Positions 13,009 through 63,001 of a stretch of DNA of 64,000 nt are shown here, piece after piece; position 1 is the stretch's first letter; the number at the start of each line of letters is the position of its first letter. Where the stretch lies: NCBI GenBank assembly GCA_016181845.1, contig JACOYO010000005.1:2845-66844 (forward strand). The letters are read 5' to 3'. Below the pieces are notes generated by a model. It was given only the letters and a program-made list of their open reading frames with translations, made no database searches and was not told where the DNA came from. This DNA comes from Parcubacteria group bacterium. Lineage in GTDB: Bacteria; Patescibacteriota; Minisyncoccia; Phycocordibacterales; 21-14-all-47-15. The translations under genes were made by a program, and so were the position numbers.

Positions 13009-13033
13009 CAATTGATTTTATATTTTTACAAAG

Positions 13034-13058
13034 TTTACAAAGGAGGAACCTTTGTAAA
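13034..13058. repeat. REP2-family palindrome (solo copy) tacaaaggaggaacctttgta, immediately beside tRNA-Thr
   Basis: It shares the 16-nt core GGAGGAACCTTTGTAA with five other copies at 41040, 45661, 46212, 46431 and 47348. Confidence 0.7.
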
Positions 13059-16218: not shown

Positions 16219-16290
16219 AAGTATAACCATAACATATCTAATTTCTTTTGCAATATGTTGAAAATCTGCAATGTAATATGTGTGACAAAT

Positions 16291-16315: not shown

Positions 16316-16340
16316 ACAACATGAACTAATTTCTTTAGTA

Positions 16341-16369
16341 ATATGTTGGACATCCGATGTCCAACATAT
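16341..16369. repeat. REP1-family palindrome, copy b, with the centre base flipped (catcCgatg); it forms an inverted doublet with copy a
   Basis: atatgttggacatccgatgtccaacatat, 25 bp after copy a and just upstream of the transposase start. Confidence 0.8.
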
Positions 16370-16387: not shown

Positions 16388-17098
16388 ATGCATAACGAAT
16401 TTTTTCATTTACTTAATCGCGGCGTAGACAAAAGAAACATTTTTCTAGACGAAAGGGATTATTTTAGATTCATACATAACTTATTTGAATTCAACGATAT
16501 TAATAATGTCAATCCAAATAGCAGTAATCGTGTATTTAAATCTAAATCTCACAATTCCCAATGGTTGGACATCGGATGTCCAACCATTGGGAAAACTGAA
16601 AGAAGACCGCGTAAATTGTTGGTAAATATTCACTTCTTTTGTCTAATGCCCAATCATTACCATCTTCTTGTCTCCCCTCTCGTGGAAAATGGCATCTCAT
16701 ATTTTATGAAAAAATTAAATATGGGATACTCAAAATATTTTAACGAAAAATATGATAGGTCCGGAGCTTTGTTCCAGGGAAAGTACAAATCCGTTCACAT
16801 TGAACGGGACGCTCATTTTTTATGGATTCCTTATTATATTCACTTTAATCCTTTGGAATTAAAATTTCCCTCGTGGAAACATGAAAAAGTCTCCGATTAT
16901 AAACAAGCTATGAAATATTTAGAATCTTATAGATGGAGCAGTCATTTGGATTATCTAGGAAAGAAAAATTTTCCTTCGGTAACACAACGAGATTTTTTTC
17001 TTGAATCTTTTGGCGGAGAAAAGAAGTATCAAAATTCTGTTTCAGAATCTCTCTCTGAAATAAATATATCCGATATGGAAAATATAACTCTTGAGTAA
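16388..17098 (+). CDS. IS200/IS605-family HuH (Y1) transposase, RAYT-like, with an in-frame REP1 copy inside the CDS
   Basis: HuH motif [12 protein letters not shown], with the conserved downstream block [24 protein letters not shown]. The start is the ATG at 16388 ([12 protein letters not shown]); the ORF-track N-terminus is REP-encoded. A REP1 palindrome lies in frame at 16557-16591. Confidence 0.65.
16557..16591. repeat. REP1-family palindrome, copy c, embedded in frame in the transposase CDS (it encodes [13 protein letters not shown])
   Basis: cccaatggttggacatcggatgtccaaccattggg is a 35-bp extended palindrome. Confidence 0.8.
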
Positions 17099-17109
17099 TT
17101 TGAGTAATT

Positions 17110-17130
17110 GTTGGACATCGGATGTCCAAC
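17110..17130. repeat. REP1-family palindrome, copy d, 12 bp after the transposase stop
   Basis: gttggacatcggatgtccaac. Confidence 0.8.
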
Positions 17131-17138
17131 GGGTTGTC

Positions 17139-19217: not shown

Positions 19218-19263
19218 ACACTACTGTATACACGAAAAACTCTTTCGTGTCAAAAAAATTAAT

Positions 19264-19287
19264 ATGTTGGACATCGGATGTCCAACA
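19264..19287. repeat. REP1-family palindrome, copy e; a solo copy between rplY and fba
   Basis: atgttggacatcggatgtccaaca. Confidence 0.8.
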
Positions 19288-19292
19288 ATTCA

Positions 19293-20144: not shown

Positions 20145-20169
20145 TACATTATGATATACTGTAAATAAG

Positions 20170-20318
20170 ATGTCAGATCTCTTGATTGGTAAAATATCGG
20201 CATTGGCCGTTTAGACGTCCGACCTCTGGATTGGTAAAATATCGACATTGGCCACAAATAAAAAATTACCACATCAGAGGTCGGACGTCTCGCACATCAG
20301 AGGTAGGACATCTTAAGT
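20170..20318. repeat. REP3-family MITE-like element: a 16-bp inverted repeat AGACGTCCGACCTCTG/CAGAGGTCGGACGTCT flanking a ~45-nt spacer, with tandem sub-duplications
   Basis: A near-identical ~110-bp element recurs at 51964-52073. It sits in the divergent promoter region between fba and the pfkB-family kinase gene. Confidence 0.7.
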
Positions 20319-36842: not shown

Positions 36843-37149
36843 TGCCATCCGCAGAAAACGCGGATAATTGACGGCAAGGGCATTTATCGCTTTTTGCGAT
36901 GTGATGATTTCTTCTTTTTTGAAACTTTCTTTTTCTTAGAAACTTTTTTTGATGACTTCTTTTTCTTTTTCATAAAATATTTTATTTTTATTTTTAGTAA
37001 CAATATTGTCGACCGTTTTTCCAAAAAATATTTTTTTATTTTTTAGAAAAAACTTTACTATCTTCATTATCGTACAAATAAAAAACAAAAACAATACTTT
37101 TTTTCAAAACTGTGGATAACTTTTGCAAAAAAATATTTCAGAAAATGTT

Positions 37150-38395: not shown

Positions 38396-38514
38396 ACGCA
38401 GATATTGCTCGAGAAATGTCTCCAATGAAGGACACACTCACATTTCAAAGATAGCAGACGGCATGCAAAAAGTCAAGAAATTTATCCACAACCGTAGAGC
38501 GAATGTCCGTCTGA

Positions 38515-40707
38515 TTATGGATTCCGTCCAGCCCGAATTTCATTGATAAAATATTCCCCCTTGTCCTTAAATTGCGGATTGATGATTATAACTTTTTGTA
38601 TTTCATTGATGGCTTGCTGGCGTTCTCCAATTTGCAAGTAGCTCGCGCCGAGAGAGAGGTGATACTGCGGATTATTCGGGTCTTTCTCAAGACGCAATTT
38701 CCATATCGCGATAACTTTGTCGTATTGCCCTGTCGCCGCATACGCGCCTATTAATCGGTCATCGTCAATAATCATTGTGCCATATACAGATACGAGCAGT
38801 TCTTTCGCCAAATCATTCTGCCCCGCATAAAGAGCCGCCATCGCGTACACCACCAGCGCGCGGTCATACGTTTGGTCAAATTCAAACGCTGTTTTTAATG
38901 TTGCAAGCGATTTATCGTATTCTTTTTTGTTTAAATATGAAGTTGCGAGTTCAAAATACATCGCTTGTTTTTTCGGAGAAAGCTCAATGGCGCGTAGAGC
39001 ATACGGAATCGCGGCGTCAAAATTGCCGGTGCGGTTAAGAAATGACGCCATAAAGATTTGGTATCGGGCATCGTTTGGCATTTGTTTGATTTGTTTTTGC
39101 ATCTCATCTCCGCCGAGCGCGGCAAATTGTTGTTTCAAATCGGGAGAAACATTGATGTCGGCGGCTTGCGAAGCGGCTTGCAATAGTTGTTCCCGTGTTT
39201 CAGAAGTGCCAAAGGTCTCGTAAGAGAGCGCTTTTTTATAAAATTCCAAATTCTTTTCGGGTCCTTCTTGGTGCGGCGCAAGCGCTTGCAAGAGTGATTG
39301 CGCGGTCAATATGCCTTTGATGTTTACAACATACAGCACCGACACAAGCGCAATAAGCACGATAGGTCCGAAGATGAGACCGGCATGTTTATTTGTCATT
39401 TCCTCACCATTATTATTCACAAAAGCGTTTGCTTTTGCTGTTTCAACAGCCATCGCGTGCATGTAGGCGAGCATTGAGAAAAAAAGAATATAACTGATGA
39501 GATTATCAAACACAAATACATTGTGGAAAAAATAACCCGCCAAAAGCCCCGTGAGAATACTTTTATCAACGAGAGAAAAATGATTGTCTGAACTCTTTCG
39601 CCAAAGATAATAAAGAATTGCGCCAAAAAGCGAGAGGTATGATAAAAGACCCAAAAGACCGCCGGCAATAAGCCAGTCAAAAAAGATATTGTGGGAACGG
39701 TCAAACCACGGCTCCTGCCTCCAAAGACGCGGTTCAAAATATTTGTTGAATACTAAATTATAATTTTCCTGACCCCAGCCGAGAATCGGGTGCTCTTTGA
39801 ACCCTTGTATACTCATGCCCCAAATAATAAAACGAGATTGGGTAGTGACTTCACTCGGAGAAATATTGGCAAAACGGGAAAGCACCGGGCTTGTTTTTAC
39901 AAATTCTGTATTTCTAGCCGCTAAAAACGCGCCTGCCAGCGCCAAAATTCCGATGAAAACTCCTGCGGTAATTTTCCGCGCGCGCGGATATTCTTTTCCA
40001 AAAACCATTACGAGAAAAGCCGCGAGCAACGCCCCGCCGATAAGACCCAAAATAGTGCCACGAGTCGCCGTATAATACAAAACGACAAGCTCCGCTGTCA
40101 TGAGCGCTCCGTAAATCCATTTCACCCATTGCGCGCCACGATGTCTGAACAAAAGAAACGCGAGAATAAAAATATGAAAGAGCATGTATACGGCCAAGTA
40201 CGTTGGATTGCCAAGTGTCGCATCCAAACGGCTCCCCTGATGGAGAGAGAGCGTTCGTACCAATTGCACGATGCTATAGATGCTCACTATAGCGCTAGCG
40301 CCGATAGATGTATTCGCAAACCACCACCATAATCTTTGCGTATTAAGAACGGTCCCTGCCACGAGTACATACGCGCCCAAGTGCCAAATGGTGATGAGCC
40401 CCTCCATCCGTTCAAAATTGCTCCAAAAACTTTTATATATATTTTCGCCCAAAAAATCTGCGAGCGTGATAATGCCGACAAACGCTGATACTGCCGCAAA
40501 CACCCATGAAAACCTCGGGCGATGCGACGAATCGCGATACGCCAGTATAAGCCATAGCGCAAAAACGATTTCAATGATAATCCGAAATGCAAAATTTTTT
40601 CCGGTTATAAACGGAAAAAACATTGACGGCACGACGATAAGCGGTATAAAAGGAACCAAAAAGATGCCTCCAATAATAATCCGCCGCAAGATAGTGTTTA
40701 TATTCAT
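38515..40707 (-). CDS. Polytopic membrane protein (~12 TM, O-antigen-ligase/Wzy-like?) with C-terminal TPR repeats
   Basis: Many predicted TM helices in the N-terminal 450 aa, then tandem TPR-like repeats (AIELSPKKQAMYFELATSYLNKKEYDKSL...). The Wzy-like assignment is a guess. Confidence 0.45.
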   Translation of the reverse strand: MNINTILRRIIIGGIFLVPFIPLIVVPSMFFPFITGKNFAFRIIIEIVFALWLILAYRDSSHRPRFSWVFAAVSAFVGIITLADFLGENIYKSFWSNFERMEGLITIWHLGAYVLVAGTVLNTQRLWWWFANTSIGASAIVSIYSIVQLVRTLSLHQGSRLDATLGNPTYLAVYMLFHIFILAFLLFRHRGAQWVKWIYGALMTAELVVLYYTATRGTILGLIGGALLAAFLVMVFGKEYPRARKITAGVFIGILALAGAFLAARNTEFVKTSPVLSRFANISPSEVTTQSRFIIWGMSIQGFKEHPILGWGQENYNLVFNKYFEPRLWRQEPWFDRSHNIFFDWLIAGGLLGLLSYLSLFGAILYYLWRKSSDNHFSLVDKSILTGLLAGYFFHNVFVFDNLISYILFFSMLAYMHAMAVETAKANAFVNNNGEEMTNKHAGLIFGPIVLIALVSVLYVVNIKGILTAQSLLQALAPHQEGPEKNLEFYKKALSYETFGTSETREQLLQAASQAADINVSPDLKQQFAALGGDEMQKQIKQMPNDARYQIFMASFLNRTGNFDAAIPYALRAIELSPKKQAMYFELATSYLNKKEYDKSLATLKTAFEFDQTYDRALVVYAMAALYAGQNDLAKELLVSVYGTMIIDDDRLIGAYAATGQYDKVIAIWKLRLEKDPNNPQYHLSLGASYLQIGERQQAINEIQKVIIINPQFKDKGEYFINEIRAGRNP

Positions 40708-41039
40708 AGCATTTAGTCTATCGTAAAACGCGCCCGGCTACAAGCAAGGCGCGTTTTTTAACAAAATCAAAAACGGAGCAGACGGCGCGGTGGGTTGGCA
40801 ATAATATCAACCACACCGCAAAACAAAAGAAGTACGATCAACCCCAAAAAGATAAGAAAAAGATTGTATCGAATCACCCACCAATAGTTACTGAAACGAG
40901 ACATAATTTCTCCTTTCCAAAGGATAGCGTGTTCATACTTTCTCTATATCAAAGTATAGTAAAAAAACCGCAGTTTGGATACCTCATAATATGCTACCAC
41001 AGATTAGAAGGGCTCTTTATCGCCGTATTGTTTGAATGA

Positions 41040-41096
41040 TTTACAAAGGTTCCTCCTTCGTGAGTTATCCACAACGAAGGAGGAACCTTTGTAAAA
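41040..41096. repeat. REP2-family composite palindrome: an inverted pair of the 16-nt core flanking a DnaA-box-containing spacer
   Basis: tttacaaaggttcctccttcgtgagTTATCCACAacgaaggaggaacctttgtaaaa. Confidence 0.75.
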
Positions 41097-41119
41097 CTCT
41101 TAAAAATCAATCGCCACAA

Positions 41120-44100
41120 TCACCAAAGATTCGCGGGACTGGTAGTGGCAACATTATTATTTCCAAAAGTAATATTGGAAACTGAAATGGAATAATTGTT
41201 TGTCGTCGCCGTGTCCGCAGAAACTGCGAGCGTGTTGTCTGAAAAAATAACATCCGAAAGAATAATTGGCGAATTGAGATACGATAGCGCCGTTTTCATA
41301 AACTTAAAGACCGCGCCGGAAATATTTGAAGTACTGCCCGATTGCAATACCGTGCTTTGAATAATGCCCGTGGCGCCAGTGCTCGCGCCGTCGTTTGACG
41401 CATCGTTTCCATTCGAGTCGTCGTAAACTGAAGTAAAAGTAACAGGATGTTCCGCGGTGCTTTGGATAGACAAATGACCATTAACCAAAAGCCGCTCGTC
41501 TTTGAATTTTACGATCACATCCGGGTCAATCGCAAGAGTTGAACTTGCAAGAATAGTTACCGTGCCTGATTGTTTTATCAAATACGGCAGCGTATTTTGT
41601 TTTAGCGTCGTTGTCGCGTTTGTTTTGGTGATAGCGCTGGCGAGCGCGATGCCATTCCATGCGTTTCCAGACCCGCTATTGCCTGAAAAATAGCCGTCAC
41701 CGATAACGCCGCTCGCGTAAATTGCTTCAGACGTGCTCGACGCAATAGTATTTGATGAGACTCGCGCTTCAGACGCAACCATATAAATACCGATAACATT
41801 ATCGGAAAATTGATTGTTTTCTATCGTCGGCGCGCCGCCGGTGCTCATCACGCCTCCCATCCAAAAACCGGAACCGTTATGCTGAAATACTGAATTGGAA
41901 ATAGTGGAACTTGCGGAGAAAAGCCGCAGACCGTGCATGCCTCCATACTCAAAAGTAGAGTGATTAATTGATGGCGAGGTATTTGCCAAATATAGATTGG
42001 CGGACGGCTGTCCTTGTCCGTCATAATATTTTCCACCATAACGAAACAGCGCGTAATCAAACACCGACGCATCGGAGCCCAACGCAAGCTCCACGCCATA
42101 CCAATCTCTTTTGGCGGGAGCGGTTACGCTGCCGTCTTGATTGGTATCGCCACCATAAGCATCATCAAGAAAACTGGTGAAAATTATTTTGTCGCTTTCC
42201 GTGCCTTGCGCATTCAATGTGCCCGACACGGCAAGACGGGCATTGTTATAAAATTTAATGATGGCGCCGGGTTCAAGCGTGAGTGTCTTACCCGACTGCA
42301 CAGTAATCGTGTCGTTATTTACCACATACGGACTTTTTGTTTTTTCAATAGTCATATTTTCTGTAATTGTCGGGTTGCCTTTGTTGAGCATGCGCGAAAA
42401 ACTATTGTATGCTTTTGGAGTTCCGTTGAGCACACTGCCGTTTGTATCATATCCGTTACGGATAATGACCTGGTTCCGTCCCCAATTTGTCCAGTCGGTG
42501 CCAGCTACATTCACATCAAAACGTTCCATTGAACGAAAATCTGGACTGCCGCTTCCTTTTGCGCACCAAACATAGCAATACGAAATCTCATCTATTGTCG
42601 TTGTCGCACTGCTTCCGCTTTTTCGCGCGAGAATAAGATTTTCGCCATCATTACTCAAGCCATCTCCAAAACTTGTCCATAAGTCGGCGGTGATATCTTT
42701 CACAGGTGACTGCGTTGCCTCGTCAGTTTCTCCTGTATTTTTTCTTTCAATCAGATAATAGCCGCCGGCTGGAATGGAGCCGCTCAAAGAAATATACGGA
42801 GAGCCGTCTGCCGTGTAAATTATAAACTCTGAAAGATTCACGGTGCTTGCCGTTTTGTTGTACAGTTCTATCCATTCATCAGCTGTGGATGCGTTTGTCC
42901 CGCCCCACGCCACTTCATTTATCACCACAGGCGAGGTGCTTATTTCCGCAGTAATAGTTGTTGTTGCTGAAGCGTTGCCTGATGTATCAATCGCCGCAAT
43001 CGCAAAAGAATAAGTTGTGTTGTTTGTTGCCGAAGCTGATGTTGAAGTCGCGGTCGTCGTGCTCACGGCGCCGTTTTTATTGATGACAAAGTGGCTGAAA
43101 TCATTCGCTTCAGAAGATAACCACGAAATAGAGAGCGTTGTTGTCGCGACGAGACAGCCGCTTGAAGCAAGCGAGCTTGCGCATTCTGCAATTGCGGGCG
43201 CGGGTGATTGCGGCGCGATTGAATCTATAAAAAATGTCGTGCTTGTGGCGGCAGAAATATTGCCCGCGCCGTCGGTGGCAAAAAATTGCGCTGTCGTCGT
43301 GCCTTGATTAAAAGTAAGCGCAAGAGACCATTCACCTGATTGGCTGACAGTGGTTGTCGCCGATGATACATCAGAGTTTATGACACTTCCCGATTCGGCA
43401 GTCCCGCTAAAGATTATTGATGGGCTCGTAAAGGTTCGCAAAAAATCCGCCGGAGCGGTGATCGCGGGGGCGGATGGCGGGATGGTGTCTGTTGCTGTTT
43501 GTGCATTCGCCGAAGATGTGGTTTGTGTTGTTGCATCTCCTCCTCCGCCGAAGCCTGGTGTGACAATTATCGGAAGTGATACGCCGGGAACAGTTTTGTT
43601 TGCGGAAGCATTTTCAGTGTTAAGCACTGCATCCGGTGAACCGCCGACATATGCTTCATCAGAATTTTGGTTTTGATTGGTTTGTTCTTCGGTGCGCAAA
43701 TTTGTGTTTTTCAGAGAAAAATCGGCAAGTGCAAAAGCAAGCGCTTGTGTTTCTTTTTCTGCCATCGCTACTTTTTGCTCAAGCGCGAGAAGCTCTTTGA
43801 CAGGCGACACGACATCACTAACATCACTAGATGACAGAAGCACAGGTTGTTCTTTTGTGAGCGGTAAATCAAGCACTTCAGCCACCGCGCTTGATTGCTC
43901 TTTTGGTGATGTGTTAAAGACGCTCGCGAGAGTGTTGGCGACTGAAAATATTCCTTGCGCAAGAGTGCTTCCCGCTTGATGCGCTCCTTTTGCAACAGCA
44001 ACAACAGTGCTTATACTTTTGCTTGCAACAGGGTCAGCAACGGCAAATATCGCGCCTTCTATTTTGTGTACGCGGGTCAGCTTGGGCGCTACGATACAGG

Positions 44101-44845
44101 GCATATTTTCGTCTATTCTATCATTGCTTTTTAATGCATCTAACGAAGCCGCTATATCAGAAACAACCTGACCGCCACGATATTTCAGATATACTTTCGC
44201 GAAATCATGCCCAGTAATATCATCGTCGGATTTTAATTTAATGTGAGTATTCGGCGGCATAATGCTTTTGAATGGAACATGCCCGACAACGCCGGCAATC
44301 ACTTTATCCGTATCGGACGTGAGCCATTTTCCGCCGCCGGCAACACTGCTTGCCGGAGTCGCAACACTGTAAACACCCATTGATTCTTTTGAGACGCCAG
44401 CTTCTTGCTCCGCGACGGTATCATAAAAACTATTGGCATAAAAATTGCCCTGTGAATGGGCAACGAGAAGGAGTTTTTGAGTACGAACTTTTTCACTTGC
44501 TGATTTAAGCATTTCCACGAGGTCATAGTCTGTCACTGTCTCCTGGTCAAACAACCCCTGTTCTATGGATTTTATAACGTCGCCGATACCGCCGAGGTGC
44601 GGTGGGTTGAGGAGAAAGTCAATAATCAATTTTTCTCCTTTGTAGGTATTCTTAAAATAATATTTTAAAGCATCTCTGTTTGAAATAGCTGCGTTTTCAT
44701 CAGTAAAGACACCATTAATTGTATTGATTGTATAACCCTCAGAAGAACAAGCTTCGCCAGACGTTTGAGCGAAAACTGTAAATGGAGAGAAGCTAACGAA
44801 AAAAGCAACTGCAATTATTTTAAATTTTATTGAAAAATGGTTCAT
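41120..44845 (-). CDS. Giant secreted protein (1241 aa): N-terminal esterase/lipase-like region (AHSQG), central lamin-tail domain, C-terminal parallel beta-helix-like repeats
   Basis: Signal peptide; GxSxG-like LVAHSQGN; the LTD signature VVINEVAWGG..ADEWIELYN...LSGSIPAGGYYLI; T/S/N-rich repeats. Confidence 0.5.
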   Translation of the reverse strand: MNHFSIKFKIIAVAFFVSFSPFTVFAQTSGEACSSEGYTINTINGVFTDENAAISNRDALKYYFKNTYKGEKLIIDFLLNPPHLGGIGDVIKSIEQGLFDQETVTDYDLVEMLKSASEKVRTQKLLLVAHSQGNFYANSFYDTVAEQEAGVSKESMGVYSVATPASSVAGGGKWLTSDTDKVIAGVVGHVPFKSIMPPNTHIKLKSDDDITGHDFAKVYLKYRGGQVVSDIAASLDALKSNDRIDENMPCIVAPKLTRVHKIEGAIFAVADPVASKSISTVVAVAKGAHQAGSTLAQGIFSVANTLASVFNTSPKEQSSAVAEVLDLPLTKEQPVLLSSSDVSDVVSPVKELLALEQKVAMAEKETQALAFALADFSLKNTNLRTEEQTNQNQNSDEAYVGGSPDAVLNTENASANKTVPGVSLPIIVTPGFGGGGDATTQTTSSANAQTATDTIPPSAPAITAPADFLRTFTSPSIIFSGTAESGSVINSDVSSATTTVSQSGEWSLALTFNQGTTTAQFFATDGAGNISAATSTTFFIDSIAPQSPAPAIAECASSLASSGCLVATTTLSISWLSSEANDFSHFVINKNGAVSTTTATSTSASATNNTTYSFAIAAIDTSGNASATTTITAEISTSPVVINEVAWGGTNASTADEWIELYNKTASTVNLSEFIIYTADGSPYISLSGSIPAGGYYLIERKNTGETDEATQSPVKDITADLWTSFGDGLSNDGENLILARKSGSSATTTIDEISYCYVWCAKGSGSPDFRSMERFDVNVAGTDWTNWGRNQVIIRNGYDTNGSVLNGTPKAYNSFSRMLNKGNPTITENMTIEKTKSPYVVNNDTITVQSGKTLTLEPGAIIKFYNNARLAVSGTLNAQGTESDKIIFTSFLDDAYGGDTNQDGSVTAPAKRDWYGVELALGSDASVFDYALFRYGGKYYDGQGQPSANLYLANTSPSINHSTFEYGGMHGLRLFSASSTISNSVFQHNGSGFWMGGVMSTGGAPTIENNQFSDNVIGIYMVASEARVSSNTIASSTSEAIYASGVIGDGYFSGNSGSGNAWNGIALASAITKTNATTTLKQNTLPYLIKQSGTVTILASSTLAIDPDVIVKFKDERLLVNGHLSIQSTAEHPVTFTSVYDDSNGNDASNDGASTGATGIIQSTVLQSGSTSNISGAVFKFMKTALSYLNSPIILSDVIFSDNTLAVSADTATTNNYSISVSNITFGNNNVATTSPANLW

Positions 44846-44851
44846 AAAATC

Positions 44852-45457
44852 CTAATTTGGTAATGCAAAAAGATTAATATCGCATATCTCATTTTCTGAT
44901 TCACTATAACTACCTACATACTGAACAAAATCTTTTCTGGCATTTTGTCGGTCCAGTGTATTTCTTTGCTTATTTTCTACAAACCCATGCAACTTATCTC
45001 CAATTTCAAGAAATTTTTTTATATCATCTCGTGAAGTTATTTCCCCAACGCAATAATGTGCCCTGCTCTGCTCTCTCACAACTTCAGTCACCGTCTCCGT
45101 ATTCACAATCGGCTGTATCACCTCCATCTGCAATGCCAGCGCATACTGAAGCAAAACCGCCCGTGTCTTTGCCGAGTTCGGATATTCTTTAAAAATCTCC
45201 AGCTCAACATCATCACGGATCCCGTTTTGATTCGCGTCAACGCCGGCAATAGTTTTATCCGCATCTGCCCCTGGGTCAGGCGGCAAATTCTTCCCCATCA
45301 CATCATCAAGCGTAAGTTTTGTCGCGTGAATTTTTGCGACTTGTTCTTCCGTCTTTTGCAGATTGTAAAAATAAAACATGCGCACAATGACCAACAAGGC
45401 GTAAGCACTGGCAATGACCGCAAGAATAATCAATAGTATCTTTTTTGTTTTTGACAT
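44852..45457 (-). CDS. Hypothetical membrane-anchored protein
   Basis: N-terminal TM (ILLIILAVIASAYALLVIV), then a soluble domain. Confidence 0.35.
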   Translation of the reverse strand: MSKTKKILLIILAVIASAYALLVIVRMFYFYNLQKTEEQVAKIHATKLTLDDVMGKNLPPDPGADADKTIAGVDANQNGIRDDVELEIFKEYPNSAKTRAVLLQYALALQMEVIQPIVNTETVTEVVREQSRAHYCVGEITSRDDIKKFLEIGDKLHGFVENKQRNTLDRQNARKDFVQYVGSYSESENEICDINLFALPN

Positions 45458-45660
45458 AGTATGAACCGCGATTATCTTGCTTGCTCAACCACCGGAGTAG
45501 CCGGTGTTGACGTATCTTGCACTCCCAAAAAGAAAACGGCGACCACGCCTATAGCGATAATCGCAAGAAACCCGAGTACGAATTTTATAAACGTAGAATT
45601 AAAAAATTTCATATAATACCAATCAGCTAATCAATCTAAACAGTTTACCACAAACCAAAA

Positions 45661-45740
45661 TTACAAAAGTTTACAAAGGTTCCTCCTTCGTTGTGGATAA
45701 CTTGTTATATTTACAAAGGTTCCTCCTTTGTAAATATAAC
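45661..45740. repeat. REP2-family composite element (two direct copies of the core flanking a DnaA box); it overlaps the last 8 codons and stop of the second RAYT-like gene
   Basis: ttacaaaagtttacaaaggttcctccttcgttgTGGATAActtgttatatttacaaaggttcctcctttgtaaatat. Confidence 0.75.
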
Positions 45741-46394
45741 GTTGGTATTGAATTCAGATATTAAATTGCCAATGTCATTTAACGTCTTGAAGTGTTCCGG
45801 GAAAGAATCTTTGTTTAAAATAGAACTTTCCGGTCTATTTTTTACAAAATAATCACCATAACTAGAGTAGTGATAATTAGACAAAAAAGACTTTGTTTTT
45901 GCCAGGTTGGCGATGCCCATCTCTTTCCAATCGGGATTAGCAATCTTTATCGGATTTAGATGAATATATGAAAAAAGCCAATTAAAATACGGCTCATTAT
46001 CAACATATTTTGCTTTGAAAGACCCCTCAAAAAGCGTGCCGGTTCTATCATGCTTCCGATTAAAATACATAGAGTACGCCGTGGCAATCTTTTTCATAAA
46101 AGTACTAATGCCCAAATGCTGTTTTTCATAAATAAGTATATGAAAATGGTTTGGCATAAGGCAATATGCCCCAATATCAACAAGTGTTGATATTTTTTCT
46201 GTGGTAAACAAATTTACGAAGGAGGAACCTTTGTTAAAATAATCCCTCATATCAACCGCTTCAGAATTGTTACATAAATACAAAAGAGCTAAAAAGCGCC
46301 TATAATCATGCTCGTCTTCGAAAATAATTCTTTTATCAGTACCTCTATTGTAAAGATGGTAATAATTACCGAGCGTAAATGATATTTGTCTCAT
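45711..46394 (-). CDS. Second IS200/IS605-family HuH (Y1) transposase, RAYT-like, cognate to REP2, with an in-frame REP2 core inside the CDS
   Basis: HuH motif CLMPNHFHILIYEKQ and the downstream GTLFEGSFKAKYV..YFNWLFSYIHLNP block, collinear with the first RAYT (16388..17098). The start is at 46392-46394. The C-terminal ...TKEEPL* is encoded by a REP2 palindrome. Confidence 0.65.
   Translation of the reverse strand: MRQISFTLGNYYHLYNRGTDKRIIFEDEHDYRRFLALLYLCNNSEAVDMRDYFNKGSSFVNLFTTEKISTLVDIGAYCLMPNHFHILIYEKQHLGISTFMKKIATAYSMYFNRKHDRTGTLFEGSFKAKYVDNEPYFNWLFSYIHLNPIKIANPDWKEMGIANLAKTKSFLSNYHYSSYGDYFVKNRPESSILNKDSFPEHFKTLNDIGNLISEFNTNVIFTKEEPL
46212..46236. repeat. REP2 core copy embedded in frame in the RAYT2 CDS (it encodes FNKGSSFVNL)
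   Basis: atttacgaaggaggaacctttgtta. Confidence 0.75.
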
Positions 46395-46430
46395 TGGTGA
46401 TATTATTGTTATGCTTAATTTATCGTTATT

Positions 46431-46510
46431 TTTACAAAGGAGGAACCTTTGTAAGTTATTCACATATTATCCACAACGAATGAGGAACCTTTGTAAAGAC
46501 TTTGTAAAAA
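46431..46510. repeat. REP2-family composite element between RAYT2 and the TPR gene
   Basis: tttacaaaggaggaacctttgtaagttattcacataTTATCCACAacgaatgaggaacctttgtaaagactttgtaaaaa. Confidence 0.75.
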
Positions 46511-46520
46511 GCCTCATAAA

Positions 46521-47342
46521 TCAAAGAGCGGAAATACGCTGTTTTAGTTGATCTTGCAATTTTGTATCGTTTGATTGCATGGCTACATCAAGAGCCTCTT
46601 GATAGTACTTTTTTGCGGAAGTTTTATCCCCTTGCCCTGCGTAATACTCGGCGAGTGTTGAGAGAAGAAGTATGTTTTTAGGGTTATTTTTCAATCCTTC
46701 AAGCAAGATACCGTCTGCCAAATTCGCTTTTTCTACATAAGAGAGCGAGTACAGCTCATGCATGCCGATATACGATGGAATAGAGTTTGGTTTTACACTT
46801 ATCGCTTTTCTAAAAGCAGATTCAGATTTTGCAAAATCATGTATTTGATAATGGTAGAAATTGCCCAAATTGATGTACGGCACATCATGTTCAGGCCACT
46901 GTTTGGTCATGAAAACCCATATTTCTTCGGCCCCCATATTGTCGCCAATCAATTTGCGGTACGATGCAAGATCAAGCCAGCTGCCAAAAAGCCCAGGTTC
47001 TGCTGCAAGCTCTTTTGCCAATTCAGCAATTTTGGTTCGGGCCATAGTTTCCGTCTCTGGAGCAAGCGCCGATAAAATAACGACTGGTCGCGCCAAATCA
47101 GGAAGCGGGGCGAGCAGTTTCGTAGATTTTTCTGAATTTGCTGTATTTGTCTCTCCTAAATTTGCGGTTTTATTTAAGCTGCCCACTGTTTCTGGTGTAG
47201 TCGTCGCCACATCAATAGGGACTATTTGTGGCTTATTAATAGTATTTTTATATACAGCATAACCAACAACAGTAGCTGCAAAAATAATCAAGAAAATAAG
47301 TATTTTTTGGCTTTTCATATCTAACAAGCATAGCAAAAACAT
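46521..47342 (-). CDS. TPR-repeat protein with an N-terminal signal/TM anchor
   Basis: N-terminal hydrophobic helix; the C-terminal 200 aa carry TPR-like repeats (AEYYAGQGDKTSAKKYYQEALD...). Confidence 0.5.
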   Translation of the reverse strand: MFLLCLLDMKSQKILIFLIIFAATVVGYAVYKNTINKPQIVPIDVATTTPETVGSLNKTANLGETNTANSEKSTKLLAPLPDLARPVVILSALAPETETMARTKIAELAKELAAEPGLFGSWLDLASYRKLIGDNMGAEEIWVFMTKQWPEHDVPYINLGNFYHYQIHDFAKSESAFRKAISVKPNSIPSYIGMHELYSLSYVEKANLADGILLEGLKNNPKNILLLSTLAEYYAGQGDKTSAKKYYQEALDVAMQSNDTKLQDQLKQRISAL

Positions 47343-47347
47343 AGATA

Positions 47348-47413
47348 TTTACAAAGGAGGAACCTTTGTAAGTTATTCACATATTATCCACAACGAAGGA
47401 GGAACCTTTGTAA
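47348..47413. repeat. REP2-family composite element, near-identical to 46431-46497
   Basis: tttacaaaggaggaacctttgtaagttattcacataTTATCCACAacgaaggaggaacctttgtaagtt. Confidence 0.75.
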
Positions 47414-47420
47414 GTTGGGC

Positions 47421-47462
47421 AACGCAAAACCCCCCGGCTCCGAAGAGCGGGGGGGTTGCGTG
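47421..47462 (-). terminator. Strong GC stem-loop downstream of the S-layer-like gene; a probable terminator that lacks a clear U-tract
   Basis: caacgcaaaaccccccggctccgaagagcgggggggttgcgtg. Confidence 0.35.
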
Positions 47463-47530
47463 AAGGCATTGCCTTCGCTTTAGCTTCTATCTCGTCCGTT
47501 GTTACACGGAGTTCGACCGAGAGAAACTAG

Positions 47531-50500
47531 TTAGATTGAATAGGTATGTGTTACAGAATCCATGTTTGATGTTGGCAACCCCGGTACCAAGTATCCGTTT
47601 GTCCAATCGAAGTCCGTAATCAATTCTGATGACGTCGTTGAGATTGGTGACCAGATAAAGTCGTCATTGATATCGTTGTCAACACCAGTTGCGCCAAGTT
47701 CTGTACCCGCAACATCCATCAAAGTTGTCGGCACTGCCGCATCTCCTTCTAGCTGAACAGTGATTTGCTCTGAACCGGTAGTCGTCCGCAAGTTGCCAAC
47801 GGTTGCTTTCAATTCAAAGTATCGTGTTGCGCCAGATGGGACTTTGTATGTCGTCGTGGCTGAAGCCTTGTCTGGATAGATCTCAACGATAGTTGGGCGC
47901 TTTGCATCTGATGAATCGTCGGCATTTGCACCGAGACCATTGATGTATTTATTTGCGTTAACCAAACCGTCTGAAGAGAATGTCGTATCCGGACTTGAGA
48001 ATCCAGAATCAGTGAAGGCGTAGAGACCGTAGGCTGAAGTGGTCGCTGATACGGATGATGAGCCCATAGTAAATGTCCATTTACCAAGCGCAATGTCTCC
48101 ACTATTAGCGGTTACACTGAAGCGGTACAATCTATAACCTGAACTGTTCTGAAGAGTCTGGCTTGGAGGATTAATCTTCGCAAACGTTGGGTATGCTTTG
48201 AAGATTCGTACTCCTGAAGGAGTTACGTCTCCAGACGTACCCGCAATGTTTGTGCCTCCTGCGACACCGACACCGTAGTTACCGTTTGCAAGACCGTTTG
48301 CTCCACCATCGTAAGCAACAATGAGCAAATCTCCTGATGCCGTCAAAGGACCAGTGACTGCTGATATACCGGAAATCGTACCTTTAATAGTCATTGTCTT
48401 AGACCCGCCCTGTGGAACACGGAATGCTCCTGATGCAATGTCTGATGATGTCGCGTTATCGCCATTGTTTGAGAACGTTGCTGTTCCAACCTGTGTGTTG
48501 CCATTCCACATTGTTACCTGGCTACCAACCAAGTCGATAGCTGTATTTCCTGCAGGGGTTGCGAGCTTGAACGCCACTCTCCTGATATCAATATCTTCAG
48601 ACGTTGCTGTAAATTTGATTTTCAAGAGTGTTGCTTCGGTTCCTGGAGATACGATTGTATATCCCGGTGTTGAATCATCCGCAACTGTGTATGAACCGCC
48701 TGTAGTCATTGTCATTGTCTGTCCGGCGCTGTTGTTTACTGTAATTGCTGAAGCTGAAGTTAAAGCTTGTCCTGACTGTACGCCTGTTGCTGACTGTGAA
48801 GCATCTGCGTTTGCAGAAATACCCCACTGGTACTGGTCAGTCGTTGTTGTTGCTGAAGTGTTGCAGTTCAAAGACAAGGTCTTTACCGTTCCTTTTGGAA
48901 TAACAAATCCATTGTCAAATGTGAAGCTCGTTGAAGATGCTGTCGCTTGCGTCTGTGCCGCTGTTGGGTTTACCAAGTTTGAGCCAGTCTGCAATGCGGT
49001 TGCGCCATCAGAAAGCCCGCAGTTTGTAAGGTTTGATGCTGTTCCAGCTCGCGTATTCAATGCCAATTTTACTGAATTGAAACGAATATCATCGCCTGAT
49101 TGTGACGCGTCAAACTGATACTTTGCGAAGTTGAATGAACCACCAGCAACTGCAGTCTGCGCCAATGGCGTTGAAAGTACGCTGATGGTGACCACCGGCG
49201 CTTTCACCGTCATTGTGTTCATCGTGATTGCAGATGAAGGTGTCGGGGTGATTGAATTACCAGTTGATTGACCTGTTACCGTGCCCCAACCGCTTGGTGT
49301 CGTTGATGCTTGTACAGTGTCATTGCTCGTGTAATCAGTGCTCAATTTACCTTTCAAGGTGTAGAGTCCCTTTCCAACCGGGAAAGTAACCGTATCAGTG
49401 AAGCTAAATGTGCCTGACTGAGTTACTGATGAGGAAGTATTTGCTCCATCAACTGGACCGGCAACAATATTGCCATTTGGACCAACTATGGTGACGTTTG
49501 TAATGTGGGCTACCGTATCTCCTACTGAGTTTGCAGTAAATGTCATGCTCGAAACAGAGATTGGTTCGCCTTTAACATCAACATTGAAACCTCCCAAAAC
49601 TTGGTTTGCTGTGTTGATTGAAATGTTTTGCGCGCCAACGCTTGTTGCCGCTTCTACTGTCAAGCTGCCGTTTGAAACCGTTGCCTGATATGCGTCATAC
49701 CATGGGTTTGTGCTTTCGTGGAACGCACCGTCATCTGATCCTGAAGTATCGGTACCGTTAGGAGGCGTAATTCCATATCCATACGTTTCACCCGTTACGT
49801 ATAGGTCTGTCCTCTTGTAGAGATCAAAGTCTATCGTACGAGCAGAACCGCCCAAGATATCACCTTTGATGTAGATTTCTTTTGAGGCTCCTTTGTCAAC
49901 AACGAGGCCTTCGCCAAATGTTGTTGTGTAGTATTTACCATCTGAAGAGACAACTACATCGTATGATGTTCCGTCAACGTATGTTTTTACATTTCCAATG
50001 TCAGCAGTCGCCGCTGAACCAGACTGATTCCATCTAATTGAATGAACGCGAACTTTTTCTGCTGAACCTGCCGTTACTTTGACTGATGAGAAAGTGTAAC
50101 CTGCTGTTCCAATTTCTTTTGAATTGCTTGCGCCAGGGTCAAGCGGACCTGCTGCCATCGTTACCGTGCCGATTGAAAGCGAGTTGTTTATTGTGTGTCC
50201 CGCGCCGGTGATAGGAAGAGAGCCTGAAACTGTTGCCGAGGTGTTAACCGCTACAACAGAAAGACTTGCAACCTGTCCTGCGTATGAACCCAAACTTGAA
50301 CCCATGTTTCCTGCAATCGTCATCGTGCGAGAGGTTCCCGCCTTTACAACGAAGGCATCTCCTACCGTTGCCTTGTGGTCAGAGTTCAAAGTCTTTTCAA
50401 TACCGAGCTGTGCGCCGTTTTCATCCAAAAGGACGATTCCGGCAAATACTGCGTCATTTGCAAGACCTGTGCGCTCAATCACTACGCTGTTTACTGTCAC

Positions 50501-51166
50501 ATCACCATCAAATCCTGCGGTGAGAGTAACTTTAGTAAACGGAACGCGTGCCGCACTAGCTGGTGCGAGCGATGCCGCTGGCTGGTCTGCCGACACAACC
50601 GACAATCCTGTCCCAGGAACACTTACAACCGGAGTTGAAGGTGTTGACGGGGTTGAAGGAGTTGAAGGTGTCGTTGCAACGCCGCCCATCGTGTTTAATT
50701 TTGCCCGTGTTGAGGCGCCGACAAAGCCGGTACCATTTGAAAGACCAACTGGGGTCAAAATATCTGAAGCGTATTTCTCTTGGAATTTGATAACTGCCGC
50801 TTTGGTCGCTGGACCAAAGAATGAAGTCTCATTTCCCGGAGAACCTACTCCGCTGACCGCGACTTTCGTGTCAGCGCTCATGTTCAACACTTTCTGAAGA
50901 TTCATCACATCGGTTCCTGTAGAACCTACTTTAAGGTTTACCGCGAACGTGTATGAACCAACCGAAGCGCTGCCTCCTGTCATTGTTGAAAGTTGTGCTT
51001 GGAGTGCCGAGATCGTTGCAAGCAAGCTGTTGATTTGAGCGGTAAGCTCTTCAACCGTTGCCGCCTGTGCGGGAACAAATACTGCTCCCATCATCATGAG
51101 CCCCGTTGCAATGCTTGCGAATCCAGCAATCACTTTTGAGAATGAAGATTTTCTAATTTTACTCAT
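47531..51166 (-). CDS. S-layer-like giant cell-surface protein (1211 aa) with a signal peptide, coiled coil, peptidoglycan-binding domain (PGBD-like) and a TPS-linker
   Basis: Signal peptide ..ATGLMMMGAVFVPAQA. PG-binding-like VGSTGTDVMNLQKVLN...FFGPATKAAVIKFQEKYA. A (TPS)4 linker, then >900 aa of T/S/G/A-rich beta-rich sequence. A ~900-bp AT-rich upstream leader fits a highly expressed surface-layer gene. Confidence 0.55.
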   Translation of the reverse strand: MSKIRKSSFSKVIAGFASIATGLMMMGAVFVPAQAATVEELTAQINSLLATISALQAQLSTMTGGSASVGSYTFAVNLKVGSTGTDVMNLQKVLNMSADTKVAVSGVGSPGNETSFFGPATKAAVIKFQEKYASDILTPVGLSNGTGFVGASTRAKLNTMGGVATTPSTPSTPSTPSTPVVSVPGTGLSVVSADQPAASLAPASAARVPFTKVTLTAGFDGDVTVNSVVIERTGLANDAVFAGIVLLDENGAQLGIEKTLNSDHKATVGDAFVVKAGTSRTMTIAGNMGSSLGSYAGQVASLSVVAVNTSATVSGSLPITGAGHTINNSLSIGTVTMAAGPLDPGASNSKEIGTAGYTFSSVKVTAGSAEKVRVHSIRWNQSGSAATADIGNVKTYVDGTSYDVVVSSDGKYYTTTFGEGLVVDKGASKEIYIKGDILGGSARTIDFDLYKRTDLYVTGETYGYGITPPNGTDTSGSDDGAFHESTNPWYDAYQATVSNGSLTVEAATSVGAQNISINTANQVLGGFNVDVKGEPISVSSMTFTANSVGDTVAHITNVTIVGPNGNIVAGPVDGANTSSSVTQSGTFSFTDTVTFPVGKGLYTLKGKLSTDYTSNDTVQASTTPSGWGTVTGQSTGNSITPTPSSAITMNTMTVKAPVVTISVLSTPLAQTAVAGGSFNFAKYQFDASQSGDDIRFNSVKLALNTRAGTASNLTNCGLSDGATALQTGSNLVNPTAAQTQATASSTSFTFDNGFVIPKGTVKTLSLNCNTSATTTTDQYQWGISANADASQSATGVQSGQALTSASAITVNNSAGQTMTMTTGGSYTVADDSTPGYTIVSPGTEATLLKIKFTATSEDIDIRRVAFKLATPAGNTAIDLVGSQVTMWNGNTQVGTATFSNNGDNATSSDIASGAFRVPQGGSKTMTIKGTISGISAVTGPLTASGDLLIVAYDGGANGLANGNYGVGVAGGTNIAGTSGDVTPSGVRIFKAYPTFAKINPPSQTLQNSSGYRLYRFSVTANSGDIALGKWTFTMGSSSVSATTSAYGLYAFTDSGFSSPDTTFSSDGLVNANKYINGLGANADDSSDAKRPTIVEIYPDKASATTTYKVPSGATRYFELKATVGNLRTTTGSEQITVQLEGDAAVPTTLMDVAGTELGATGVDNDINDDFIWSPISTTSSELITDFDWTNGYLVPGLPTSNMDSVTHTYSI

Positions 51167-51963
51167 AATTTATTTAATTACTAATGAATCCATAATTTTG
51201 CGAATGTTCATCTATGAAACACCTTGCAAAAAAATGGCTTGGCGTACTTATTTTTTATTGTTAATTTTTATTGTTAATTTAATAAAAATAATAAAAAATA
51301 GTGCGCCGCTTTTATTATTGTATCGTTTCGTATCATCTTGATACAAAACGCGTCCGACCAGTTACCTATTAAAAATATTCAACCGTTCGTGTCCCCGCTT
51401 TGACCCGCCCCAAACAAATACGACGAAGCAAGGTGGACAAACGAACAAATTGAAAAATCTTTCGCTAATTTGCTAATAAAGGTTCCTCGTGGCAAGCCCC
51501 CGAGGTATTAACCTATATTTCGTCTTCGCTCGTACGAAATGAGAATTGCGATTCTCATTTCGCTCCTCGCTAGCCGAAATAATTTTTTTAACGTTGTCTG
51601 TTTTTGTTGTCTAATTTATTTTGTTTTCAAGGTTCCCACCGCTATGCAAAATACTCAAAAATTTCTTGCGTCATTCTAACCTTAAATCCACTAATCTGAA
51701 AAATCCGCAAAAAACTTTTTGCCGTCATTATCAATTATATGCTGAATTTAATAACCTGCAAAATATTTAATGTGGATAACTTTCTATATCATTTCGGAAC
51801 CGCCTATTTACTTTTATCCCTTGAATTTCGCGACAAAAACACATCTTTTTGCATACTTTTATACATTTCTCTAGTTATACAACACTATACTATGCAGGCA
51901 AAAAGGTCAATATATACATATATTAGACGCCCGATAAATGATAAAGCATTGGCATTGACCACT

Positions 51964-52073
51964 TAAACGTCCGACCTCTGCAGTGGTAAAACATCGGCAT
52001 TGGCCATAAATAAAGGAATTACCACATCAGATGTCGGACGTCTCGTTACCACATCAGAGGTCGGACGTCTTAA
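51964..52073. repeat. REP3-family MITE-like element, second copy
   Basis: taaACGTCCGACCTCTGcagtggtaaaacatcggcattggcc...CAGAGGTCGGACGTcttaag matches 20209-20318, including the 16-bp terminal inverted repeats. Confidence 0.7.
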
Positions 52074-52885
52074 GAGACTAAAGAATACCTGCTCCACCGC
52101 CGTTCTCCGTTTTTTTTTAAGATTCCTTTCTGCACCAGATAAATCAAGTCGCGCTGTAATGTTTTCTCACTGCACCCACTAATACGGTTAGATATGTCTT
52201 TAATATTCACATCACTATTTGTGTCTTTTATAAGCTGTACGATTGTTTCTTTCCTTTCTTCTTGAATGACATTTTCTTTTGTTTGTGTATCAAGCGCTTT
52301 TTCAACTTTTTCTGTGCCCTGTTTTTTTATTGCAATGAACCCACGATTTTCATTATTTAATAATTTTTTTTCTGCTTGTCCTTTATCAATAGTATGTCTT
52401 TTATCATGTCCTTTAGATTTAACTGTCCCGAAATTGTCGATAGACAACATATTATCTTTTTCAAAAAAATGATTACCAAATACAACTTCTGTCCCGGAGT
52501 AGCAAAAATAATCACGGCGAGATTCAAGAAATGAACTTAGATTTAGATATTCTTTTTGAAGAATGTTTGCATTCATTTCAGAAACAACACCGCTCGTTCT
52601 GGCAATTCGCAAAAAAGCATTAGTCTCCTCTATGTTTGTTAATACCATTAAAAAGACATTTTCTTTGGCGTCTTTCTTGATGGGGGCCGTACAAGAAAAT
52701 ATATCGGACAAAATTATCAGTCCTTTATTTCGTAATAATGTCTTTAACGGTTCTGATGGCGGGATGAGGTCAGAGACAAGATAAAGCGCGGAGGTTAAAC
52801 GCTCCGCCATTTTTACCGCAAAATCAATAACATCCTTGCTTGAATCGCGGTATGACACTATGTCTTTTATATTTTTTGCAAACAT
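52070..52885 (-). CDS. Hypothetical protein with a C-terminal winged-HTH (putative transcriptional regulator)
   Basis: The C-terminus ISNRISGCSEKTLQRDLIYLVQKGILKKNGERRWSRYSL resembles the wHTH of the Fic-like protein at 975..2021. Confidence 0.4.
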   Translation of the reverse strand: MFAKNIKDIVSYRDSSKDVIDFAVKMAERLTSALYLVSDLIPPSEPLKTLLRNKGLIILSDIFSCTAPIKKDAKENVFLMVLTNIEETNAFLRIARTSGVVSEMNANILQKEYLNLSSFLESRRDYFCYSGTEVVFGNHFFEKDNMLSIDNFGTVKSKGHDKRHTIDKGQAEKKLLNNENRGFIAIKKQGTEKVEKALDTQTKENVIQEERKETIVQLIKDTNSDVNIKDISNRISGCSEKTLQRDLIYLVQKGILKKNGERRWSRYSLVS

Positions 52886-53118
52886 ATTTTATTGTGTCCT
52901 TTATTTTTGTCTTTAATAAATTTTTGTGAATTGAAATATTTATGGGAGTAATTTTCGTATACATGTCCATTATATATAAGGCACTCTAAAATAAAAGTCT
53001 TTTTGAGCAACATGAAATAACAAAGTAACGCTGTAAAGAGCCGCGTCCTGATATTTTTTGTTTCCACAAGAAATGTCGGTTTCTTTATGTTATGATGGGG
53101 TATATTTTGATAGAAAAT

Positions 53119-62796: not shown

Positions 62797-63001
62797 ATAA
62801 GTAGAGGATGGATTTCAAAATTTATAAAAAATAAATAATAGGTGCACCTATTATTATCGACCGATAAAACTTAATACTTGTACAAACATTAAGCGACACA
62901 CCTGCATGGTATGCTTACCTAATATCAATAGTAAGTATATAACATTGTGGCAAAACGCAAAAGACGCCCTTGTGGATAAGGAGCGGATAAAGAAAAGCCA
63001 T

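Follow-up and report, generated by a model that had tools for sequence, protein, structure and literature searches.

A transposase gene of a Parcubacteria bacterium with an in-frame copy of its own hairpin repeat: a probable REP/RAYT system

In a 64,000-nt stretch of DNA from a Parcubacteria group bacterium (contig JACOYO010000005.1; hereafter the window, with positions counted from its first letter), a family of dispersed repetitive extragenic palindromes (REPs), called REP2, surrounds the gene of a putative REP-associated tyrosine transposase (RAYT), called RAYT2, and some of these palindromes carry a perfect DnaA box. The locus raises two questions: what a DnaA box is doing in a dispersed repeat, and why one copy of the repeat lies in frame inside the transposase gene itself. 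Our answer is that REP2 and RAYT2 probably constitute a REP/RAYT ("REPtron") system, that is, a vertically inherited single-locus HUH/Y1 transposase with its short hairpins, in which a conserved tail beside the hairpin would serve as a tag and the copy inside the gene would be overwritten. The spread and uniformity of REPs and the long retention of single-copy RAYTs are open questions in the literature (PMC5581495), and no report of RAYTs in Patescibacteria was found in the literature searched. The present case would extend REP/RAYT systems to the candidate phyla radiation with its small genomes, where the family is very large. Repeat and box counts refer to the window unless other loci are named; coordinates are collected in Table 1.

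The RAYT2 protein and its hairpins

The open reading frame (ORF) of RAYT2 spans 45711..46463, with the ATG at 46394 as the likely start, and its product is identical to NCBI protein P0001 from a metagenome-assembled genome of the Parcubacteria group (136-kb contig); an exact-protein look-up of RAYT2 and P0001 returned no contig on record. The protein matches Pfam Y1_Tnp (E 4.7e-10, 40.1 bits for a cutoff of 23), and H83, H85, Y143 and N147 are invariant in the homologue alignment A1. When the AlphaFold (AF2) model (predicted local distance difference test, pLDDT, 86; predicted template modelling score, pTM, 0.85) was compared with the PDB using Foldseek, the best match was 4er8_A, the E. coli RAYT bound to a REP hairpin (E 3.4e-5), and the next ones were IS608 and ISDra2 TnpA. 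The predicted structure and the alignment show that RAYT2 has a RAYT-type fold and the catalytic residues. The motifs described for RAYTs are a conserved N-terminal Thr and NP(L/V)(R/K)xG beside the Tyr (Nunvar 2010, PMC2817692); RAYT2 reads Y143-IHL-NPIKIA, i.e., NP(I/V)K with the Gly absent, and its N-terminal motif is YHxYNRG, in which the equivalent of the Thr is not assignable from the alignment. The protein is also about 60 aa longer than classical RAYTs, with a loop insertion of about 25 aa.

The 16-nt core of REP2, GGAGGAACCTTTGTAA, was found ten times with at most two mismatches, for 0.02 matches expected and in 0 of 100 shuffles. With the Y1_Tnp match and the 4er8_A fold, this bears out the first-pass annotation, which had proposed a palindromic family with its own RAYT-like transposase; the six loci it had named (13034, 41040, 45661, 46212, 46431 and 47348) all exist. 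The basic unit is the hairpin TTACAAAGG-AGGAA-CCTTTGTAA, which occurs in two forms. The A form is a perfect hairpin devoid of the box and of any conserved sequence upstream (13035, 45711, 46432 and 47349), and the B form, in which the stem is shorter and includes a G-T pair (CGAAGG/CCTTTG), comes directly after (A)GTTATCCACA-A (41074, 45671, 46476 and 47393). The copy at 41041 is the inverted partner of that at 41074, the box being common to both. Hairpins start with TTTACAAAGG or ACGAAGG, and the GTAG/GTGG tetranucleotide of classical REPs is absent. As single-stranded DNA, the units fold into hairpins with z values of -3.5 to -10 with respect to shuffled controls. Three composites are made of A, a spacer and B, with both cores in direct orientation, and only 41040-41095 fits the inverted doublet of a REPIN (REP doublet forming a hairpin). 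Some units are near-copies of one another: 46428-46496 shares 97% identity with 47345-47413, and 41063-41095 is 100% complementary to 45670-45702. A role of REP2 as an intrinsic terminator was rejected, the T-run after the hairpins being absent, and an Rfam search of 40000-53000 returned only spurious microRNA-hairpin matches on the 41040 unit. An exact-core scan of the GTDB representative genomes, a set from which the source genome is missing, gave only 10 single chance matches; a scan of metagenomes yielded mostly single matches, apart from three short contigs that are related (L021, L013 and L025).

The composites flank RAYT2 in inverted orientation, the pairs I3, I4 and I7 linking 45670-45741 to 46424-46497; the B hairpin of the 5' flank (46476-46497) differs by one G>T change. 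At the other end of the gene, the palindrome TTTACAAAGGAGGAACCTTTGTAA, an A hairpin, encodes the last seven codons and the stop of RAYT2 (FTKEEPL*) and its stem extends further upstream, so that the earlier statement that REP2 provides the last eight codons was essentially right. As had also been noticed, REP2 copies bracket both RAYT2 and the neighbouring tetratricopeptide repeat (TPR) gene, through these inverted flanks and the unit at 47345-47413.

Besides the window, the RAYT2 clade is represented by the loci L021, L027, L029, L032, L034, L035 and L036, and the clade of RAYT1, the second transposase of the window, by L037-L039. Inverted REPs flank the RAYT gene in L021, L027, L029, L032, L034 and L035 as well. 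Across the eight genomes, the RAYT2 orthologues are 55-100% identical (55-81% for the relatives of the window) and share their gene neighbourhood. The order RecA/FtsK/helix-turn-helix (HTH) protein/surface protein/TPR/RAYT, in which the surface protein has about 1,150-1,210 aa, is found in L027, L029, L032, L034 and L035; the TPR gene is the syntenic neighbour in these five and in L021, a short contig covering only the TPR-RAYT end, and L036 has no TPR gene at that position and a split surface protein. Each locus has one RAYT gene per clade at a fixed chromosomal position, a count made over the loci examined. Because the orthologues keep the same neighbourhood in eight genomes, RAYT2 is, judging from synteny, vertically inherited at a single locus, as is typical of RAYTs, which are single-copy and vertically transmitted (Bertels 2017, PMC5581495). 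Family matches amount to more than 7,800 proteins among 90% clusters; for clusters made at 50%, the number is 310 up to E 1e-30 and 18,322 up to E 1e-3. Wherever the source names the organism, the host is nearly always Patescibacterial.

The REP/RAYT systems of Proteobacteria (PMC2817692, PMC3116915, PMC5581495, PMC8266576; 4ER8) present the same single HUH/Y1 gene per locus, vertically inherited and in synteny, the same inverted flanking palindromes repeated elsewhere in the genome, the co-evolution of REP and RAYT, and a motif directly 5' of the hairpin, which is likewise conserved here. They differ from the present case by the host (Patescibacteria, here Parcubacteria), by the tag, GTAG/GTGG there and a 10-nt GTTATCCNCA on only one of two REP forms here, and by the in-frame copy of its own REP that the gene holds here. 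With the IS200/IS605 elements (IS608 and ISDra2 TnpA), the common points are the fold, the catalytic residues, recognition of subterminal hairpins on single-stranded DNA, and cleavage guided by a short stretch 5' of the hairpin; unlike in these elements, the gene here is neither multicopy nor mobile as a unit and the hairpins are dispersed on their own. In our reading, RAYT2 presumably binds REP2 hairpins on single-stranded DNA, would read the tail beside the hairpin where it is present, and would cut and rejoin the hairpins, thereby spreading and homogenising the REPs. Strand exchange catalysed by RAYT, or conversion among REPs, would overwrite all REP-like sites including the one in its own gene, after which selection would let through only in-frame, stop-free variants of the internal copy.

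Two additional observations concern the hairpins. Nine nucleotides of the outer stem arm (TTTACAAAG / CTTTGTAAA) are duplicated beside REP2 hairpins, at 13025-13033, 45661-45669 and 46498-46512; the same duplication lies inside the RAYT gene at 1186-1203 of L021, with three residues (FAN) added. Either replication slippage or cleavage followed by rejoining may have left it. Towards its apex, REP2 (e.g., 47349-47371) reads AAGGAGG, a perfect Shine-Dalgarno sequence, on one strand, and on the sense strand of all local genes the apex gives CCUCCUU, an anti-Shine-Dalgarno mimic. This likeness is probably incidental, since the REPs of related genomes lack it.

The in-frame copy of the repeat inside the transposase gene

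The first-pass annotation had reported a REP2 core embedded in frame at 46212-46236, and a comparable one in RAYT1. The RAYT2 copy is present (46212-46242), but it is not a REP inserted into the gene, a possibility that was rejected on the absence of any gap at this position in alignment A1. It matches the flanks of RAYT2 at 19 of 21 positions and is the sole segment of the gene with multiple extragenic copies (nine). For a systematic comparison, 16-mers were slid along each RAYT gene and their extragenic matches counted for 12 genes of the two clades. Residues ~48-64 were the only internal segment with several extragenic copies in 11 of the 12 genes: the window, L021, L027, L029, L032 and L034 were positive in the RAYT2 clade with 3-10 extragenic copies, and the window, L037, L038 and L039 in the RAYT1 clade. 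L035 has one extragenic copy over a 28-nt stretch and matches its own flank at 21/21 positions, and L036 was negative, its gene being intact. The internal 21-mer agrees with the flanks of its own gene at 17-21 of 21 positions, whereas the flanks of other genomes give 13.1 matches on average. In the predicted structure, the segment is modelled as a pair of short helices around the KGSS turn. These comparisons show that, in two paralogous clades, the REP hairpin of the genome itself encodes the loop modelled between helix alpha-1 and the HUH strand.

Could this resemblance be due to chance or to protein-coding constraint alone? A peptide motif, F-x-x-G-x-x-F-V-E-L-F, is indeed conserved in the family, but the match is genome-specific, the pattern holds for RAYT1-clade peptides of entirely different sequence, and the pairs covary as reverse-complement codons, which a constraint at the protein level does not predict. 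The centre of the RAYT2-clade palindrome falls on a codon, so that mirrored residues need reverse-complement codons. The position two residues beyond the central Gly is occupied by S, P, T or A in 90% of 110 homologues, which fits GGN/NCC pairing. The next residue pair out is K>F in 32, E>F in 29, Q>L in 18 and R>S in 4 of them; its codons are compatible in 77%, versus 50% after column shuffling (0 of 2000 shuffles reach the observed value), and those of the following pair in 59% versus 28%. The codon covariation and the genome-specific match effectively refute this explanation, to which we give hardly any credence.

A second explanation is that the internal REP is a selected cis-element, either an autoregulatory site, at which RAYT would bind its own gene or transcript and thereby sense the REP load, or a protected master copy that seeds variants. 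Its position is kept in two clades only 36% identical and it covaries through at least nine hairpin sequences; the RAYT2-clade stem AAAGG/CCTTT corresponds to the codons of the conserved K-G...[SPTA]-F, which fits a coding copy constraining the family, and the internal hairpin of RAYT1 is very stable (-19.3 kcal/mol). However, that of RAYT2 has little stability on the mRNA-sense strand (-2.2 kcal/mol, z -0.3), the L036 gene is intact without an internal copy, and the loop is the best possible in-frame palindrome in only 21 (strict) to 40 (ties counted) of 144 representatives at 50% clustering, ten of which have a potential of at least 16 bp, which makes the copy dispensable. We regard selection for such an element as doubtful. 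The same figures led us to reject the universality of the internal palindrome across the family, for which there is no support beyond the two clades.

What we propose, tentatively and as a possibility on the lower side of even, is that in the large Patescibacterial RAYT family the in-frame copy of the gene's own target hairpin has been kept in step with the extragenic repeats over deep time, and that it is perhaps functional, whether by physically linking the repeat to the loop it encodes, as a protected master copy or as a site of autoregulation. If this is true, the copy would provide direct genomic evidence that RAYTs rewrite REP sequences in vivo. A REP copy that is under coding constraint and still tracks the current REP variant is a natural marker, and argues for ongoing RAYT-driven exchange. 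The RAYT literature searched contained no account of a RAYT gene with a copy of its own REP inside. REPs inside unrelated host genes are known (Di Nocera 2013, PMC3733652), and the Rickettsia palindromic elements (RPEs) and in-frame GTAG/CGTC REPs are also palindromes translated within functional proteins, in permissive surface segments (PMC3733652). These are sporadic insertions into unrelated host genes that add extra residues; the present copy, unlike the RPEs, sits within the gene of its own transposase, occupies the same fixed position in both paralogous clades, involves no indel and tracks the current REP.

Another part of RAYT2, aa ~185-200 (RPESSILNKDSFPE; 45790-45830), has a high in-frame palindrome potential, 17 bp being possible by back-translation; its actual DNA, CCGGGAAAG...CTTTCCGG, has no extragenic copies.

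The tail of the repeat and the DnaA-box motif

The perfect DnaA box TTATCCACA occurs nine times in the window for 0.44 expected. Four of these boxes are inside REP2 units (41065, 45692, 46467 and 47384), and a second consensus box, TTATTCACA, is found 11 nt upstream of two of them (46456 and 47373). The first-pass annotation had placed a perfect DnaA box in the REP2 spacer and suggested that the repeat could be datA-like or DnaA-regulated. Four units do contain the perfect box, but it belongs to the B form only: the four A hairpins and the internal copy are without it, and REP2 copies of this kind were what the annotation itself had named as evidence against its proposal.

In its general form, this proposal holds that REP2 is a dispersed DnaA-binding element, acting as a titration sink or putting neighbouring genes under DnaA control. 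The specificity of DnaA domain IV is widely conserved, and the five boxes within 1.75 kb recall datA and the DnaA-titrating clusters of E. coli, which have several consensus 9-mers within ~1.7 kb. The four REP2 boxes are not independent events, however, since the units are copies of one module, and unlike those of datA they lie in a hairpin spacer or loop (in the 41040 unit, the loop of a 22-bp hairpin), have no origin association and are imperfect in orthologous loci. In the L021 orthologue (80-143) of the 47345 unit, located upstream of the TPR gene, the two boxes are degraded to TTACCCACA and TTATCAACA; elsewhere the tail reads TTATCCCCA (L027, L029 and L034) or TTATCCTCA (L032) at this position, while the solitary boxes located at promoters of the same four genomes stay TTATCCACA. 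The variable base is at a position that we take to be important for binding by E. coli DnaA. Neither dnaA nor dnaN nor an origin turned up among the window ORFs scanned, and a replication origin in the window was rejected, the cumulative GC skew being monotonic. Several consensus TTATNCACA boxes conserved among relatives, as in a DnaA-box cluster, were not found. Considering also that the REP2 boxes lack promoter spacing, we judge a DnaA-binding role of REP2 to be very unlikely; the case cautions against taking every perfect DnaA box in a repeat for a binding site of DnaA.

The comparison of the orthologous loci points to a different role for the tail. The flanking hairpin has a different sequence at each locus (Table 1), yet the tail GTTATCCNCA is kept at the 3' flank, directly 5' of the hairpin in seven of the eight loci. 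Its variable base N is A in the window, L021, L035 and L036 (GTTATCCACA), C in L027, L029 and L034 (GTTATCCCCA) and T in L032 (GTTATCCTCA), so that the tail is a perfect DnaA box in only some genomes; its conserved part, GTTATCC-CA, is not the DnaA consensus. That the tail is conserved while the hairpin is replaced indicates, from the loci compared, that it is under selection. Tail and hairpin are also joined away from RAYT (window 41063; L034 9902, 15243 and 18059), and L021 has at 1933-1964 a lone tail-plus-hairpin module where the window has a 14-nt spacer and no module; since both recur together at other sites, the tail is part of the repeat. The idea that TTATCCACA is an insertion target left empty elsewhere was set aside, the window site matching L021 1933-1964 having no box, although its spacer is too diverged for this to be conclusive. 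Classical REPs need a conserved motif 5' of the palindrome, GTAG, which is required for RAYT binding and helps to choose the cleavage site (PMC8266576). By analogy, we infer that the 10-nt tail is the 5' recognition tag of this RAYT clade and not a datA-like sink, and that the DnaA-box identity in this genome would merely be the N=A variant of this tag.

The boxes outside REP2 bring in another explanation: the tail would be an operator for the factor that binds the solitary AGTTATCCACA boxes, and the B units would spread operator or decoy sites, rewiring or buffering a regulon. On this view, the 3'-flank tail would have begun as the promoter box of the small membrane-protein gene that follows, and the hairpin next to it would have captured this box. 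All five non-REP boxes of the window are intergenic. There are 28 perfect boxes in 181.6 kb of RAYT2-lineage sequence, and 13 of the 18 without a following REP hairpin have a -10-like hexamer 29-39 nt downstream (ten of them at 29-33 nt), versus 8% of random positions. Most solitary boxes are preceded by G or AG and oriented toward the downstream gene; that of the surface-protein gene (window 51771) is kept at the orthologous site in L027, L029, L032, L034, L035 and L036, and a second one, upstream of an MscS-like gene, in L029, L032 and L034. The solitary (A)GTTATCCACA motif is about 20-fold enriched in the RAYT2 lineage, and the 60 kb of L037-L039, from other Parcubacteria, contain no such box. 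From their positions, these solitary boxes look like a lineage-specific promoter-upstream operator, separate from REP2.

For the REP2 tail itself, the operator explanation draws on the extended motif AGTTATCC-CA common to tails and solitary boxes, on the constant syntenic place of the tail, close upstream of the following gene in all orthologues, including L036 where no hairpin follows it, and on the L029 tail, which stands 29 nt from a TATAAT, as solitary boxes do. But seven boxes are embedded in REPs in the window, L021 and L025, and a -10-like hexamer at the distance seen for solitary boxes accompanies none of them, on which ground REP2 was also rejected as a promoter donor in the window. 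Moreover, three of the four REP-embedded window boxes are antisense to genes, and the eighth base of the 10-nt GTTATCCNCA varies in the same genomes in which the solitary boxes are strictly conserved. An operator role of the tail therefore seems to us unlikely, though somewhat less so than DnaA binding.

Several points weigh against the REP/RAYT system with its tag and its overwritten internal copy. The score of RAYT2 with NCBIfam REP_Tyr_transpos (42.5 bits) is under the 80-bit cutoff, also a difference from classical RAYTs, and PDB searches with the protein sequence and the profile gave nothing meaningful, only the fold search having matched. The REP2 counts refer to the window, since the source genome is outside the GTDB representatives. 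In L036, the tail is 3' of the hairpin instead of 5' and the internal copy is absent. A-form hairpins are equally common without the tail, which consequently is not required for every copy, and the extended motif shared by tails and solitary promoter boxes makes a common binding factor possible.

Table 1. Coordinates of the features discussed (window positions unless another locus is named)
Feature	Position	Strand	Details
RAYT2	45711..46394	-	227 aa; HUH motif H83-F-H85; catalytic Y143 in YIHLNPIK
Internal in-frame REP2 copy	46212..46242	-	YFNKGSSFVN, aa 52-61; + strand is the B-type hairpin ACGAAGGAGGAACCTTTGTT
3'-flank composite REP2	45670..45741	-	A hairpin 45705-45741, 16-bp stem, overlapping the last codons and stop of RAYT2; then AGTTATCCACA (box 45692-45700); then B hairpin 45670-45691; DNA fold -18.1 kcal/mol, z -7.3
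5'-flank composite REP2	46428..46497	+	A hairpin 46431-46454; TTATTCACA 46456-46464; TTATCCACA 46467-46475; B hairpin 46476-46497; inverted relative to the 3'-flank unit
Composite REP2	47345..47413	+	Between the terminator of the 1211-aa surface-protein gene and the TPR gene start
REPIN-like inverted pair of B-type arms	41040..41095	+	22-bp stem; 12-nt loop GAGTTATCCACA carrying the box; -25.1 kcal/mol, z -10
Solitary A-form hairpin	13034..13058	+	Adjoins tRNA-Thr; no box; 9-nt arm duplication at 13025-13033
Core GGAGGAACCTTTGTAA	13042, 41041, 41079, 45671, 45711, 46221, 46439, 46481, 47356, 47398
TPR-repeat gene	46521..47342	-	Pfam TPR families; bracketed by REP2 units
RAYT1	16391..17098	+	RAYT2 paralogue, 36% identity, E 4e-44
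REP1 palindrome inside RAYT1	16559-16587		In frame; same alignment position as the RAYT2 internal copy (BLASTP)
Flanking REP hairpin, L027			AAAGGTCCGACCTTT
Flanking REP hairpin, L029			CCGAGGCCTTGCCTCGG
Flanking REP hairpin, L032			CGAAGGCAAGGCCTTCG
Flanking REP hairpin, L034			CACAAAGGACTGTCCTTTGTG
Flanking REP hairpin, L035			ACAGAAAAGGGTAGCCCTTTTCTGT
Flanking REP hairpin, L036			TAGGAAGGCAATTCCTTCCTA
Solitary AGTTATCCACA	51771..51779	-	31 nt upstream of TATAAT, ~600 nt upstream of the surface-protein gene
Solitary box	6190-6198	-	
Solitary box	37111-37119	-	
Solitary box	62971-62979	-	
Solitary box	38482-38490	+	
Solitary boxes, other loci	L027 4597; L029 4907, 13575; L032 4800, 17369; L034 4713, 18855; L035 4932; L036 5532

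RAYT1 and other repeats of the window

The window had been described as containing two unrelated REP/RAYT pairs. This holds for the repeat sequences of the two systems, but their transposases are, by sequence comparison, paralogues (36% identity, E 4e-44). REP1 (TGTTGGACATCGGATGTCCAACA) flanks RAYT1 at 16288-16316, 16340-16368, 17105-17133 and 19261-19289, and the longest RAYT1 ORF, from 16343, begins within a REP1 copy; the annotated protein, P0121, has 236 aa, one residue more than the reading from 16391 used here. Unlike those of the RAYT2 clade, the RAYT1-clade orthologues of L037-L039 are mutually non-syntenic. At 10691-10850 of L037, the last ~100 nt of the RAYT gene and the 3' REP are duplicated in tandem directly after the stop codon.

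A third family of composite inverted repeats, AGACGTCCGACCTCTGATGTGGTAA... / ...TTACCACTGCAGAGGTCGGACGT with GGCCAATGCCGAT units, is found at 20142-20315 and 51939-52072; it has no associated transposase in the window, and one of its copies is just upstream of the 51771 promoter box. Lastly, the long internal direct repeats at 7840-8554 and 2059-3770 belong to large surface-protein genes (FG-GAP/TSP3, dockerin-containing) and reflect an ordinary repeat-protein architecture.

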